Notes under the pieces: generated by a model | Database searches by the model: none | Told to the model about the DNA's origin: nothing | Seen by the model: only the letters and a program-made list of their open reading frames with translations | Translations under genes and position numbers: made by a program | Shown: piece after piece, positions 2,363-57,290 of the stretch | Position numbering within the stretch: position 1 is the first letter of the stretch | How the letters are laid out: every line of letters starts with the position of its first letter | IMG/VR virus record: IMGVR_UViG_3300015371_000001 | Coordinates: 32,001-96,000 of that record | Source of the DNA: a virus | Reading direction: 5' to 3' (one strand) | Length of the DNA: 64,000 nucleotides

Positions 2363-2369
2363 CCGATGA
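2363..2369 (+). promoter_or_regulatory. Candidate late promoter -10 element CCGATGA (sigma28-like), leaderless terminase transcript
   Basis: CCGATGA followed by 7 nt then the GTG start at 2377, with no SD; same spacing at 11328, 20842 and 32953. Confidence 0.6.
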
Positions 2370-2376
2370 AGTCACT

Positions 2377-4215
2377 GTGAGCGGACTTGCAGGCTACCTC
2401 TCGTCTCCCCTGGACGAGGCGAGCCTTCCGCTAGAATCTATCTTTGCTGAAGAACCTGTACCGCTCACCACGTTCGTGCAGGACCGGAAGTTCCTGGGCA
2501 ACCCCCCGCTGAGTCCGATCCAGTACCAGGCAGTCCGGCACATCGAGCAGATCTATTTCCCAGAGACGTACAAGCTGATGGCTCAGCAGTTCGGGGAGTA
2601 TTGGGAGCCGGTCAGGCCGATCAATTTCGCCACGCTCCAGTGGGGCAAGGGTTCTGGCAAGGACCACATCTGCCGTGTCTCCAGCTTGCGGATCGCCTAC
2701 CTCTTGATCTGCCTGAAGTCACCGCAGGAGTACTTCGGCATTGCGCCGCAAGACACGATCCACATGCTCAACGTTGCGTCCAGCCGACTCCAGGCAAACA
2801 ACGCATTCTTCACTCCGTTGGTCAAGGCCGTGCAGCGTGGCTGGTTCGCCGATCACGCTCACGACAAGCAGGACGTGATCATCTGGAGCAAGAACATCGA
2901 GTCCATCTCCGGTCACGCTGACGCCGAGTCTCAGGAGGGCATGAACCTCATCTTGGGGATCGCCGACGAGATCGACGCCTTCCGCTCCAAAGAGGAGTTG
3001 TTGAGCTACCGAGCCAAGCAGGCGCGTGAGCCTACTCGTTCTGCTGAAGCCATCCTCAAGATGCTGCGTACGTCGGCCAGCACCCGGTTCCCTCAGACGT
3101 TCAAGATCGTCCAGATCTCCTATCCGAGGTACCTGGGCTCCACGATCCAGCAGTTGACCAGGCGGGCCAAGCAGGACTTCAAGGAGAAGGGGCCGCGTTC
3201 GCGCTACTACGTGGACGGCCCTCGGGCTACTTGGGACGTACGGCCCGGTCTCACGAAGGAGAACTTTGCCGAGGACTACGTCGAGGACGAGATCATGGCG
3301 CGCTCGATGTATGAGTGCAAGCCAGCCCGAGCCGTTGATGCGTACTTCCGGAACCTTGATGCACTCCACGCCTGCGTACGGGACGAGGAGTCCCCGATCA
3401 AGGTGGACTACAAGCTGGAGAAGGAGCGCGGCTCCAAGGTGTGGGTGCCGCGCTATCACTTCGACCCAGGCTTCTACCCGATCAAGGGTGCGAGCTATGT
3501 GATCCATGCGGACATGGCGGTCAAGAACGACCGAGCCGGAGTGGCGATGTCCCATGTCGTGCGGTGGGACACCCAAGAGTTCACCAGTCACGACGAGGAG
3601 GGCGGCGAGGAGCGCTGGCACGATCAGCGTCCGTTCGTGAAGTGCGACTTCATCTTCAGCTTCCAGGCTGATCTGAACGACAAGCCGCCACGAGAGATCC
3701 AGATTCGGTGGGTCCGGCAGTTGGTGTTCGAGCTACTGCGGCAGGGCTTCCCCATCGCACGGGTGACGTTCGATCAGTTCGAGTCGCGTGACTCCATGCA
3801 GATCATCGAGTCCAAGGGAGTCGAGACTGAGCGTGTCTCACTGGACCGTGACGAGACGGCATGGCGGACTCTGCGTGACTTGATGTATGAGGTGCGCTTG
3901 TCGATGCCGATGAGCAAGATCCTGATTGAGGACGAGCTTCCGTCATTGCAGAAGTTGTCCAACGGCAAGATCGACCACCCGCCGATGGGGTCCAAGGACG
4001 AGGCCGACGCGCTCGCCGGGTCAGTTATGGGCGCTATCGAGATCGGTGGTGCTGAGGACCCCGATGGGCAGCGGGCGTACTTCGGCAGTGACCGGTTCGG
4101 TGGGGCACTCGGACCGGGCGGCAAGTTGTTCAACCAGCCTCGGTCGCATCGGTATGACGAGCCAGTCGTCAGCGACACCGTCGGCTACTCGGTGAGTTGG
4201 TGGGGTGACGGATGA
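2377..4215 (+). CDS. terL: Terminase large subunit
   Basis: Walker A-like WGKGSGKD, Walker B ILGIADEID, RNase H-like nuclease motifs IHADMAVKND and IDHP..GSKDEADA; directly upstream of the portal. Confidence 0.9.
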   Translation: MSGLAGYLSSPLDEASLPLESIFAEEPVPLTTFVQDRKFLGNPPLSPIQYQAVRHIEQIYFPETYKLMAQQFGEYWEPVRPINFATLQWGKGSGKDHICRVSSLRIAYLLICLKSPQEYFGIAPQDTIHMLNVASSRLQANNAFFTPLVKAVQRGWFADHAHDKQDVIIWSKNIESISGHADAESQEGMNLILGIADEIDAFRSKEELLSYRAKQAREPTRSAEAILKMLRTSASTRFPQTFKIVQISYPRYLGSTIQQLTRRAKQDFKEKGPRSRYYVDGPRATWDVRPGLTKENFAEDYVEDEIMARSMYECKPARAVDAYFRNLDALHACVRDEESPIKVDYKLEKERGSKVWVPRYHFDPGFYPIKGASYVIHADMAVKNDRAGVAMSHVVRWDTQEFTSHDEEGGEERWHDQRPFVKCDFIFSFQADLNDKPPREIQIRWVRQLVFELLRQGFPIARVTFDQFESRDSMQIIESKGVETERVSLDRDETAWRTLRDLMYEVRLSMPMSKILIEDELPSLQKLSNGKIDHPPMGSKDEADALAGSVMGAIEIGGAEDPDGQRAYFGSDRFGGALGPGGKLFNQPRSHRYDEPVVSDTVGYSVSWWGDG

Positions 4216-55736: not shown

Positions 55737-55978
55737 CAGATCGACTCATGACAGGGACGGCCTACCTCCAGGTCCGGAAGGATTGGGGCTCGACGTGCCG
55801 AGTCGTTCGAGCGACGCAGAACAGTCCCAGCGTGCTCGCCGATGGGTGCATCGTCGTCAAGGTCCGTATTTCTGTTCCGGCTAAAGCGTGGGAGCCACTG
55901 ACCATCGAGTTGCCGGTCGAGGTCCCTGCGGAGAAGGTTGTTCGCCCGACGCTAGAGGTGGAGGACGCCGATGGCTGA
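55733..55978 (+). CDS. Hypothetical protein
   Basis: ATGA overlap; RATQNSP..VVKVRISVP. Confidence 0.65.
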   Translation: MTDRLMTGTAYLQVRKDWGSTCRVVRATQNSPSVLADGCIVVKVRISVPAKAWEPLTIELPVEVPAEKVVRPTLEVEDADG

Positions 55979-56333
55979 CTGTGTGTTCTGTGAGTTGGCC
56001 GACGAGGCTCGTGAGCGCGGCGAGACAACCTGGTCGAGCGATCAGCCGTGGTTCATCATCGAGGAGAGTGAGAACTACCCGGAGTTCTCGCCGGTCGTGC
56101 CTGGCCATTTCATGACGGTGCCGACGTATCACTACGACACTGCGATCTCCGAGCCGTACATCGCCGGGTATGCGGTCACTCGTGCTGTGGCGGAGGCCGA
56201 GAGTCGGTCGATTGATGACTTCAACGTGATCATCAACAACGGGGCGGCGGCTGGGCAGACGGTGTTCCACCTGCATGTGCATGTCGTTCCACGCTCGGCG
56301 GACGACGGAGTGGCGATGCCCTGGAGTCCGTAA
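55971..56333 (+). CDS. HIT-family hydrolase
   Basis: DCVFC..PGH..NNGAAAGQTVFHLHVHVVPR. Confidence 0.9.
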   Translation: MADCVFCELADEARERGETTWSSDQPWFIIEESENYPEFSPVVPGHFMTVPTYHYDTAISEPYIAGYAVTRAVAEAESRSIDDFNVIINNGAAAGQTVFHLHVHVVPRSADDGVAMPWSP

Positions 56334-57290
56334 GTGACTGAGATGACGGTCGAGCAGCAGAGGCTCGTTACTGACCACATCTACATCGCCGACACGATGG
56401 CGGTGAAGGTGTGGCGGACCGCTCCATACGCGCTGGAGCTAGACGAGTTGAAGTCTCTGGCCTACATGGGGCTGGTCATGGCGGCGGTGCGGTGGGAGCC
56501 GTACTGCGAGGAGCGAGGCTTCGATCCAACGCACCTCCAGTACTTCGTGGCGTTCGCTCAGCGTCGGTCCAAGGGTGCTGTCATGGACGCCTTGCGGACT
56601 CAGGATTGGGCCAATCGGTCGTTGCGCTCGCGTTACAAGATGCTTCAGGAGGCAGGACTAGAGCGGGGAGCCACCGAGACGGAGATGGCTTCGAAGTCAG
56701 GGCTATCGATGGCGGAGGTGCGCAGCACCAAGCTCGGGATGGCTCGCAGGCCGGTCAGTCTCGACACGAGTGAGGTGGACGTAGGGGGAGCACCGGGGAC
56801 GGTCGAGTCCTCGGTGCTGGCGACCGAGTTGCTGAAGTCGACGGTGGCAGCGGTCGAGCAGTTGGACGAAGTCAGTCAGACGGTGATTGCGCTCCGCTAC
56901 TACTCCGGCATGGAGATCAAAGAGGTGGCGGCTCAGATGGGGCTCACCGAGTCGAGGGCGTCGCACATTCACACCGACGCCGTCCTCAAAGTGCATGAGG
57001 TTCTGAAGCAGACGGCGATGGGAGAGCGGAACGTGGAGATCATCTACAACGTGCAGTCGGTCAAGAACGTGGACCCCGGCAAGTGGAAGTGGTTCCGTAA
57101 GACGACGCCGACCAAGATGTTGCCAGCCAGGGGGCCGTGCAAGATCATCACCGTGGGGAACGTGCCGGTCTCCCTGCCAGCGGGTTGGGAGGGGTTTGTT
57201 GCAGTGGACAGTGAAGGATTCCCTTACCCGGTGGACGGGCTGGTCCATGCGGACACGTACGAGGAGACGGAGGCACCCGATGAGCCGTGA
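56334..57290 (+). CDS. FliA/WhiG-like sigma factor with C-terminal extra domain
   Basis: ELKSLAYMGLV, FAQRRSKGAVMDALRTQDW..RSLR, region 4 VIALRYYSGMEIKEVAAQMGLTESRASHIHTDA. Confidence 0.85.
   Translation: MTEMTVEQQRLVTDHIYIADTMAVKVWRTAPYALELDELKSLAYMGLVMAAVRWEPYCEERGFDPTHLQYFVAFAQRRSKGAVMDALRTQDWANRSLRSRYKMLQEAGLERGATETEMASKSGLSMAEVRSTKLGMARRPVSLDTSEVDVGGAPGTVESSVLATELLKSTVAAVEQLDEVSQTVIALRYYSGMEIKEVAAQMGLTESRASHIHTDAVLKVHEVLKQTAMGERNVEIIYNVQSVKNVDPGKWKWFRKTTPTKMLPARGPCKIITVGNVPVSLPAGWEGFVAVDSEGFPYPVDGLVHADTYEETEAPDEP

Follow-up and report, generated by a model that had tools for sequence, protein, structure and literature searches.

A sigma28-type CCGATAA word before the late genes of a 141-kb actinophage-like virus and the phage-encoded sigma factor that probably reads it

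In this study, we analyzed a stretch of 64,000 nucleotides (nt), hereafter the window, which comprises bases 32001-96000 of the 141,276-base-pair (bp) virus record IMGVR_UViG_3300015371_000001, for a short word, CCGATAA, that recurs before its virion and lysis genes, together with a sigma factor of 318 amino acids (aa) encoded in the same window at 56334-57290 on the + strand. The word is a real, conserved and strand-specific element before late genes. Based on sequence comparison, we consider it probable (about 0.7) that CCGATAA is the -10 element of promoters recognized by a sigma28-type factor of the phage itself and that three transcripts of the window, those of the terminase, the head maturation protease/scaffold fusion and an 81-aa gene, are leaderless. 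The core of this reading has comparative support from the match of the factor to the sigma28 family, the conservation of the motif and the co-occurrence of the sigma and the motif in related phages. The initial annotation of the window had proposed that the phage sigma drives dispersed late genes from -10-only promoters in a largely leaderless regulon; the geometry of the sites, the residues that contact the -10 element and the presence of the motif at orthologous genes argue for the sigma and its -10-only promoters, but not for a regulon that is largely leaderless.

The degenerate word CCGATRA has 34 matches on the two strands of the window (23 on +, 11 on -), against 14.4 +/- 4.0 in shuffled sequences, none of 100 of which reached 34, and its signal is carried by CCGATAA. 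The whole genome, in which a codon-model gene caller places all genes on the + strand, has 14 copies of CCGATAA on + and two on -. One + copy lies within a transfer RNA (tRNA) gene, tRNA-Ile, and 10 of the remaining 13 are intergenic or no more than 12 nt from a gene end. Because any word that includes a stop codon is expected more often between genes than within them, the NNNNTAA words, 31% of which are intergenic in this genome, were used as the comparison set. CCGATAA ranks at the top of the intergenic NNNNTAA words with 10 copies, the runner-up having three and base composition predicting approximately one, and it differs from the other words of the set with p = 9e-4. All intergenic CCGATAA sites precede virion- or lysis-type genes, including four sites outside the window that stand before a giant head-region gene block, a minor-tail-like gene, a Gp80/head-like gene with a 1583-aa deacetylase protein, and an endolysin-like gene. 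The initial annotation had also treated CCGATGA as a form of the motif, which does not stand for the word in its own right as it is not enriched genome-wide (35 on +, 23 on -, mostly coding). CCGCTAA has one copy per strand in the genome, and sites with either of these two words were therefore judged by their context alone. An ambiguous case outside the window is genome site 104203, where a GTGA overlap start 4 nt upstream would place the motif inside the gene. Two further copies of CCGATAA in the window, at 35349 near the start of the tape measure gene and at 43718, 109 nt before the end of gene 42943-43821, are both coding.

The predicted promoter sites in the window, with two sites of doubtful or tentative status, are as follows:

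2363-2369, + strand: CCGATGA, followed by agtcact and GTG 2377; predicted -10 of the terminase gene, predicted +1 on the G of the GTG, leaderless
11328-11334, + strand: CCGATAA, followed by gccatac and GTG 11342; predicted -10 of the protease/scaffold gene, predicted +1 on the G of the GTG, leaderless
11844-11850, + strand: CCGATAA at codon 168 of the protease/scaffold gene, with an in-frame GTG at 11861; possible internal promoter, tentative
13343-13349, + strand: CCGATAA; predicted -10 of the major capsid gene, predicted +1 near 13357, leader of about 98 nt
20842-20848, + strand: CCGCTAA, followed by tcattag and GTG 20856 of the endolysin gene; doubtful, not counted as a promoter
21855-21861, + strand: CCGATAA; predicted -10 of gene 21880-22386, predicted +1 near 21869, 11-nt leader gaggaggacca-ATG
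32953-32959, + strand: CCGATAA, followed by tttctgc and GTG 32967; predicted -10 of the 81-aa gene, predicted +1 on the G of the GTG, leaderless
33312-33318, + strand: CCGATGA; predicted -10 of the major tail gene (ATG 33369), predicted +1 near 33326, leader of ~43 nt
51182-51188, + strand: CCGATAA at the end of open reading frame (ORF) 50959-51192; predicted -10 for the genes from 51257, predicted +1 near 51196
53130-53136, + strand: CCGATAA (TGATCCGATAAGCC); predicted -10 of the holin gene, predicted +1 near 53144, likely start ATG 53182 with a Shine-Dalgarno sequence

The initial annotation had placed four of these words exactly 7 nt before GTG starts that lack a Shine-Dalgarno sequence, and listed further motifs at 13313, 13343, 21855, 33312, 51182 and 53130; every one of these coordinates is correct, and each of the four GTG codons is the first start of its ORF. 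The CCGATGA at 13313 is probably incidental, as it is the word at 13343 that aligns with the sites of related phages.

The arrangement of the words corresponds closely to that of known sigma28 promoters. The fliC promoter of Pseudomonas aeruginosa is given as (-15)GCCGATAA(-8), with the -11 A flipped out, in the available text of PMC12784957. Escherichia coli sigma28 touches template bases -13G/-12C/-11T, according to the part of 10.1101/2020.01.02.893370 that was at hand, and WhiG/FliA targets are described as having a conserved CGA core and variable last bases in the portion of PMC12871210 consulted. The identification of GCCGATAA as the sigma28 consensus in the initial annotation is in agreement with these passages of PMC12784957 and PMC12871210. 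A sigma28 word at -15 to -8 leaves 7 nt between the word and +1, which is the spacing of the phage words to their GTG codons, and the predicted +1 would thus fall on the G of GTG 2377, 11342 and 32967. The three 7-nt gaps (agtcact, gccatac and tttctgc) contain no Shine-Dalgarno sequence, and the N-termini encoded from these starts are conserved with those of orthologues. Both the word and its spacing to the start codons fit GCCGATAA at -15 to -8, a register that we infer from this correspondence.

Across the sites, the distance to the start codon is bimodal, being either 7 nt without a Shine-Dalgarno sequence or 11-100 nt with one downstream of the predicted +1, which fits a promoter -10 element and not a ribosome-binding signal. 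The other six or seven sites of the window have predicted leaders of about 11-100 nt with a Shine-Dalgarno sequence, and the description of the regulon as largely leaderless was therefore overstated: the prediction is firm only for the terminase, the protease/scaffold and the 81-aa gene, which is three of about 10 window promoters. The internal protease/scaffold site is a possible fourth leaderless case. At the endolysin gene, for which the initial annotation had reported the same arrangement, the position and the 7-nt spacing are as described, but CCGCTAA is unsupported as a promoter since a C replaces the -11 A of the CGA core, the base that sigma28 flips out. No endolysin orthologue with which the CCGCTAA site could be compared was found among the relatives. 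An alternative for the endolysin GTG would be re-initiation after a small upstream ORF whose TAA lies inside CCGCTAA.

The product of 56334-57290 is the sole complete sigma factor in the genome. Its FliA/WhiG-like character, reported by the initial annotation, was confirmed by an alignment over the full NCBIfam model TIGR02479 (FliA_WhiG) with E 4e-30 and 105.2 bits, residues 11-224 lying on profile positions 1-223/224. The alignment to the family model shows the group-3 architecture of the sigma70 family, with domains 2, 3 and 4 and no region 1.1. Among the Pfam domains, Sigma70_r4 was matched at 8e-10 and r3 at 3.8e-5, just under its cut-off; r2 was reported only for several homologues. The best sequence match in PDB is E. 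coli FliA (6PMI, 2.8e-14), and further matches are to Aquifex FliA and to 6PFJ, whose 278-aa sigma chain we take to be WhiG. Forty-two homologues were identified with 45-73% identity, nearly all of them of about 230 aa and metagenomic. No cellular protein found exceeds 33% identity, the nearest being those of Coriobacteriia, Patulibacter and other Actinomycetota, which indicates that the sigma belongs to a phage lineage of the family. Judged by its sequence, the factor is a divergent relative and not a curated member of the FliA/WhiG family. It also has a C-terminal extension of ~90 aa (window 57018-57290) without a Pfam match, which is common only to the closest homologue (73% identical); the other homologues end at about residue 230.

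Residues D81 and R91 of FliA were reportedly assigned as -10 contacts by Koo et al. in 2009. Contacts of E. coli FliA with the -10 element are attributed to R84, R94, R95 and R98 in the accessible part of 10.1101/2020.01.02.893370. In a phmmer alignment of the phage factor to 6PMI, D81 pairs with D85, R84 with R88, R91 with R95, R94 with R98 and R98 with K102; R95 pairs with S99, with R100 adjacent. D85, R88, R95 and R98 are invariant in 17 homologues, and are also kept in gp47 of Microbacterium phage Magritte, the sole phage in GenBank with DNA similarity to this virus.

Relatives for comparison of the motif came from IMG/VR. An alignment search with the sigma identified four contigs, two of which (G001 and G002) were analyzed whole, and a search with the capsid protein identified 160 related stretches, from which 80 loci were kept; 71 of these had a protease match, 61 extended to the protease N-terminus and 48 were distinct in their upstream sequence. 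Searches of IMG/VR with the protease, the terminase or the endolysin as single proteins gave no usable relatives. In the complete sequences, where 31-60% of the NNNNTAA words are intergenic, CCGAT[AT]A was distributed as follows:

This phage: 16 on +, 2 on -; 11 intergenic + copies
G002: 9 on +, 2 on -; 7 intergenic + copies
G001: 8 on +, 3 on -; 7 intergenic + copies
Magritte: 0 on +, 0 on -; 0 intergenic

The words upstream of orthologous genes were:

Terminase: this phage, CCGATGA, 7 nt, GTG; G002, CCGATAC, 7 nt, GTG
Protease/scaffold: this phage, CCGATAA and 7 nt; G001, CCGATTA and 27 nt with a Shine-Dalgarno sequence; G002, CCGATAA and 27 nt; G004, CCGATAA and 34 nt
Major capsid: this phage, CCGATAA, about 100 nt upstream; G002, CCGATGA; G001, CCGATGG; all before a shared leader
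Gene 21880-22386: this phage, CCGATAA; G001, CCGATAA; G002, CCGATTA
Major tail: this phage, CCGATGA; G001 and G002, CCGATTA about 47 nt upstream

The motif is thus conserved at orthologous sites while the flanking sequences diverge. The terminase N-termini of this phage and G002 align from residue 1 with 51% identity over 98 aa. A leaderless start for the G001 protease, at a GTG 6 nt after CCGATTA, was considered and rejected, as the conserved N-terminus begins at the ATG 27 nt on, behind a Shine-Dalgarno sequence.

The protease/scaffold start gave the largest comparison. In 32 of the 48 distinct loci, NCGATNN stands 7 or 8 nt before an in-frame start (19 loci with 7 nt, 13 with 8 nt), an arrangement found at 19 of 2400 random positions. 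The remaining loci comprise nine with YCGATNN 22-52 nt upstream, one that is unclear and five without the motif. A word count that presupposed no pattern also placed CGAT at the top of the 4-mers near the protease start (43/48 loci, versus 16/48 in a control window inside the gene) and CCGAT at the top of the 5-mers (35/48 versus 4 in the control), with GCCGAT in 18/48. At this start the consensus reads G-G/A-C-C-G-A-T-A-G/A-T, and no conservation extends upstream of it; its one constant part is the CGAT core, followed by variable bases at the end, which is the pattern reported for WhiG/FliA targets in the portion of PMC12871210 consulted. For the capsid gene, 26 of 55 distinct loci have YCGATNN 60-140 nt upstream of the start, with a leader word in common after it. 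A word scan of five further whole contigs (G005, G006, G007, G009 and G010) found CGATAG(TA), mostly as GCGATAGTA, among the top intergenic words of G010, the overlapping words GATAGT and TAGTAT among those of G007, and CCGATA as the second word of G006. A homologue of the sigma is present in nine of 10 long related contigs, including all seven with a completeness of at least 90%; the one contig that lacks it is a fragment with a completeness rating of 72%.

Magritte, with no copy of CCGATAA, was considered as a counter-example. This was rejected on finding a variant, (C/T)CGATATCCCTG (that is, CGATATCCC), upstream of its late genes, with 10 copies on + and none on -. These stand before the scaffold gene gp19, gp17, gp23, the major tail gene gp33 (preceded by TCGATATCCCTG), gp41, gp88, gp98, a gene at 121567 and ATG 5355, with one inside gp19. 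The annotated starts of gp19 (18374) and gp98 (70419) lie exactly 7 nt after [C]CGATAT. In addition, Magritte gp47 (L001 47155-47895), annotated as 'DNA binding protein', is a FliA/WhiG-like sigma that matches TIGR02479 at 3.4e-14 and TIGR02937 above its cut-off.

A number of points weigh against our reading. The TIGR02479 score of the phage sigma is below the curated cut-off of 189.6, as are its scores for all FliA/WhiG equivalog models, and only the general sigma70 model TIGR02937 is passed (51.2 bits versus 42.9). No -35 element was found in 26, 37 or 44 aligned sites, the last set being protease-gene sites; none of the columns that precede the word is conserved, and no T(A/C)AA was found where a -35 would be expected, which bears out the observation in the initial annotation that a TAAA -35 is lacking. 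Cellular sigma28 uses a -35, yet the phage family keeps a sigma28-like region 4.2, ESRAS[QH][LI]H (ESRASHIH in this phage, ESRASQLH in most relatives), in which we would equate residues with S224 and Q228, the -35 contacts given for P. aeruginosa in the available text of PMC12784957. A strict spacing rule, applied to this genome alone, holds for two of the 11 CCGAT[AT]A sites with p = 2e-3, which is modest. The motif does not rank among the top intergenic words across the genomes of G005 and G009, though their protease genes carry it. The gene calls come from a home-made codon model that is noisy in high-GC relatives. No RNA run was among the sequencing runs that match the phage, and the promoter role, the reading of the word by the phage and not a host sigma, the transcription start sites and the timing are thus what we infer from comparison. 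Lastly, the genome has two other promoter-like families, either of which the sigma could serve, and many relatives have CGATAGT, in which GATAGT is readable as a weak housekeeping -10 hexamer with a T at -7.

The last two points are the substance of an alternative in which the words are promoters read by a host sigma, either of the WhiG/FliA type or a housekeeping factor that uses GATA(A/G)T as a weak -10, and the phage sigma serves another class of promoters such as AACAGCTAG-GTAT(C/T)A(G/A)-NNAGTGTG. We regard this as unlikely. WhiG homologues that share this consensus occur in many Actinomycetota, as stated in the part of PMC12871210 consulted, and the pairing of sigma and motif was drawn from sequence. 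However, the phage group's own sigma is near universal, has the sigma28 residues for -10 contact and, with cellular homologues at most 33% identical, appears to be a long-standing phage lineage. What is constant in the words is C-G-A-T, the sigma28 core, and not T-12 or T-7 of a housekeeping -10, and neither this phage nor Magritte, whose sequence there is CCCTG, has the T at -7. The family with GTAT, which stands before helicase genes and has a GTG exactly 12 nt after GTAT at four sites, so that it also could be leaderless, is the main reason for our giving this alternative the weight that we do; its motif is unlike any sigma28 promoter and was seen only in this genome and, in an altered form, in Magritte.

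It is considerably more doubtful that the word acts on RNA, as a start-associated or ribosome-recruiting signal 7 nt before starts or as a processing site at which polycistronic RNA is trimmed. A distance of 7-8 nt to the start is also typical of Shine-Dalgarno spacing, and the phage has a private start-associated tag, GGAGGCAG, on its non-structural genes. But half or more of the sites are 11-100 nt from the start with an ordinary Shine-Dalgarno sequence between, which a fixed-distance translation signal cannot explain, and it was on these bimodal distances that a ribosome-binding signal was rejected. In addition, the word is not complementary to the anti-Shine-Dalgarno sequence, and it is letter for letter a known promoter element whose cognate sigma is encoded in the genome. 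We give almost no credence to chance, composition or a coding artefact, by which words that contain a stop codon pile up between genes. It is the case that CCGATAA contains TAA, that TGATCCGATAA adds TGA, that as many as 31-60% of NNNNTAA words are intergenic in these genomes and that CCGATGA alone is not enriched. Nevertheless, CCGATAA surpasses all NNNNTAA words (10 versus 3), a comparison by which the stop-codon artefact was rejected, and has a 14:2 strand bias; CCGATTA and CGATAT behave in the same manner and have no stop codon, and the motif is kept at orthologous sites whose flanks have diverged.

If the word is read by the phage sigma, as we favor, the following course of infection can be envisaged. 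The sigma gene is in a helicase operon that is headed by a different promoter-like motif, so the sigma would probably be made mid-infection. It would bind the host core RNA polymerase and direct it to promoters whose sole conserved element is the sigma28-type -10 word, (TGAT)CCGATAA in this phage and G-G/A-C-CGAT-A-G/A across the phage group. With the word at -15 to -8, transcription would start 8 nt after its last base. The messenger RNAs (mRNAs) of the terminase, the protease/scaffold and the 81-aa gene would then have the G of GTG as +1, with no leader and no Shine-Dalgarno sequence, and those of the capsid, major tail, 21880, 51257 and holin genes would start just upstream of a normal Shine-Dalgarno sequence. 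The sigma would thereby be a middle product that switches on the late genes, an order that we deduce from position alone.

That a phage redirects transcription to its late genes with a sigma factor is a textbook principle, and our findings are a well-supported extension of it and not a new mechanism. The less usual traits are the lack of a -35 element and the predicted placement of the transcription start on the start codon. T4 gp55 is a sigma70-family late sigma that uses a -10-only promoter. In SPO1 (gp28, gp33/34) and phiEco32/7-11, a sigma70-family protein likewise redirects the host RNA polymerase, as far as the available parts of PMC13401047, PMC12276001 and PMC8948821 describe it. In contrast to T4, SPO1 and phiEco32, the factor of this phage is a full three-domain sigma28 relative with the cellular -10 specificity, and not a truncated or highly diverged phage-only sigma, and no gp33- or clamp-like co-activator was identified here. 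To our knowledge, a leaderless arrangement is not a feature of the T4, SPO1 or phiEco32/7-11 systems. Leaderless mRNAs are common in Actinomycetota, accounting for about a quarter of genes in mycobacteria, and have a housekeeping TANNNT -10. The predicted phage transcripts share with them a start codon at +1, the lack of a Shine-Dalgarno sequence, GTG or ATG as the start and a -10 at a fixed short distance, but differ in having a sigma28-type -10 word and in belonging to a set of phage late genes.

Among the closest counterparts is bacterial sigma28 itself (FliA/SigD/WhiG; TAAA-N15/16-GCCGATAA), which is of the same family and has the same -10 word in the same -15 to -8 register to the predicted start, the same conserved CGA core with variable last bases, and the same conserved -10-contact residues. 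The differences are that the factor described here is phage-encoded and at most 33% identical to cellular homologues, that no -35 was detected, that the base before the phage word is T or A and not G, that the targets are virion and lysis genes and that some transcripts are predicted to be leaderless. Among phages of Actinomycetota, those of the Microbacterium phage clusters EC and EI have an RNA polymerase sigma in their annotation and short repeats that are conserved between genes, as described in the part of PMC7302621 that was available. The EC/EI motif, TAGaCTCTaGGTgTaAgC, is unrelated to CCGATAA and is not linked to a sigma in that part of the paper. In the literature searched, neither a sigma28-type regulon of a phage nor CCGATAA as part of a phage promoter was reported.

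Our reading, if true, would provide an annotation rule for a large and mostly uncultured group of big actinophages, since a GTG or ATG that lacks a Shine-Dalgarno sequence and lies 7-8 nt after CGAT would be a real start, and Magritte gp47 would be re-annotated as a late sigma factor. It would also make available a compact, orthogonal pair of sigma and promoter for Actinomycetota, with a -10-only promoter of about 10 bp. Phages would have captured a cellular flagellar/sporulation sigma lineage without loss of its -10 specificity, which raises the question of whether infection also fires host WhiG/FliA promoters. Magritte is a cultured phage with the same arrangement and is open to experiment. 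Tentatively, and with more doubt than confidence, the findings may be extended to the whole clade, that is, roughly 125-140 kb actinophages with at least 160 IMG/VR capsid stretches, Magritte included. In such a scheme, a -35-free sigma28-derived sigma would run the late program, the first head-assembly mRNAs would be leaderless, a nested scaffold protein would be made, non-structural genes would carry the GGAGGCAG tag and there would be two translation channels, one for leaderless or plain Shine-Dalgarno late mRNAs and the other for tagged early/middle ones.

The phage is actinophage-like, with a genome of 141 kb, and comes from soil or rhizosphere: the DNA-type sequencing runs that contain its sequence are rhizosphere metagenomes. 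The window has a GC content of 61.5% and comprises the late (virion and lysis) genes, as determined by Pfam, PHROG and comparison to Magritte; outside the window is a tRNA block (36 genes). The genes of the window referred to here are:

2377-4215, + strand: terminase large subunit, GTG without a Shine-Dalgarno sequence as the first start of the ORF, 54% identity to the G002 and G001 orthologues
In the window: 1987-aa gene
11342-12463, + strand: head maturation protease/scaffold fusion, Pfam Mu-like_Pro 7.6e-9, PHROG 328 head maturation protease
13455-14462, + strand: major capsid protein, Pfam Phage_cap_E 1.3e-20
20856-21776: GH25 endolysin
21880-22386: gene with Shine-Dalgarno sequence gaggagg
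32967-33212: 81-aa gene with a GTG start, PHROG 31736, residues 11-75 on profile 7-67, consistent with GTG 32967
33369-33944: major tail protein, ATG 33369, 63% identity to Magritte gp33
In the window, besides further tail genes: tape measure protein of 2618 aa
From 51257: minor-tail-like gene/membrane cassette, PHROG 1298/4026 minor tail protein
About 53182-53559: holin, PHROG 9752, aligned from residue 19 of the form that starts at TTG 53140
54081-55736: SNF2 helicase, heading the operon that contains the sigma gene
56334-57290, + strand: sigma factor of 318 aa, divergent FliA/WhiG (sigma28) member

The terminase product had no Pfam or PHROG match, and its name rests on Magritte-type synteny and the initial annotation. 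The N-terminus of the protease/scaffold, VADEL..., matches the M-x-D-E-L of its orthologues by alignment. As the PHROG 9752 match of the holin begins at residue 19 of the TTG-53140 form, ATG 53182 is the favored start.

The internal CCGATAA of the protease/scaffold gene falls within the linker that joins the protease half to the scaffold half, and 10 nt separate it from the in-frame GTG. G003 (in-frame ATG 16 nt later, with a Shine-Dalgarno sequence) and Magritte (in-frame ATG 10 nt later) have the motif in that alignment column as well, and [CTG]CGATNN with an in-frame start near codons 163-189 is present in 27/48 loci versus 10/48 in a control window. The site may serve as a promoter within the gene from which a nested scaffold protein is made. 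In the capsid leader (13357-13454), a CCAGCC-like word is present in 40/55 loci and G(C/T)GCAG(G/A) in 37/55; the fold predicted for the leader of this phage is not unusually stable (z = -0.72).

The other two promoter-like families are located as follows:

GTTGACGGTCGGCAAC family: window 14602, 15892 and 16413; genome 572, 5816, 122018, 124446 and 126783
AACAGCTAG-GTAT-NNAGTGTG family: window 21781-21830 and 54047-54089; genome 11729, 20078, 105017, 130431 and 135671

The former, GTTGACGGTCGGCAAC (also written (G)TTGAC(G)G(T)CGGCAAC), about 10 nt and TAnnnT, has eight intergenic sites that precede the tRNA block, two non-coding stretches and early-looking genes, and it looks like a housekeeping-sigma promoter. 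The latter, AACAGCTAG-GTAT(C/T)A(G/A)-NNAGTGTG (AACAGC(T/A)AG...GTAT), includes the SNF2 and DnaB helicases among its genes, and its sites may be a second class of leaderless promoters. Magritte has a similar series, TTAG(C/T)GCG-TATCAC-N4-ATG. An intergenic repeat in three copies, AACTGC(T/A)AGA...GAGTAGAAGG, is also found just before start codons at window 16986-17010 and at genome 114639 and 126157.

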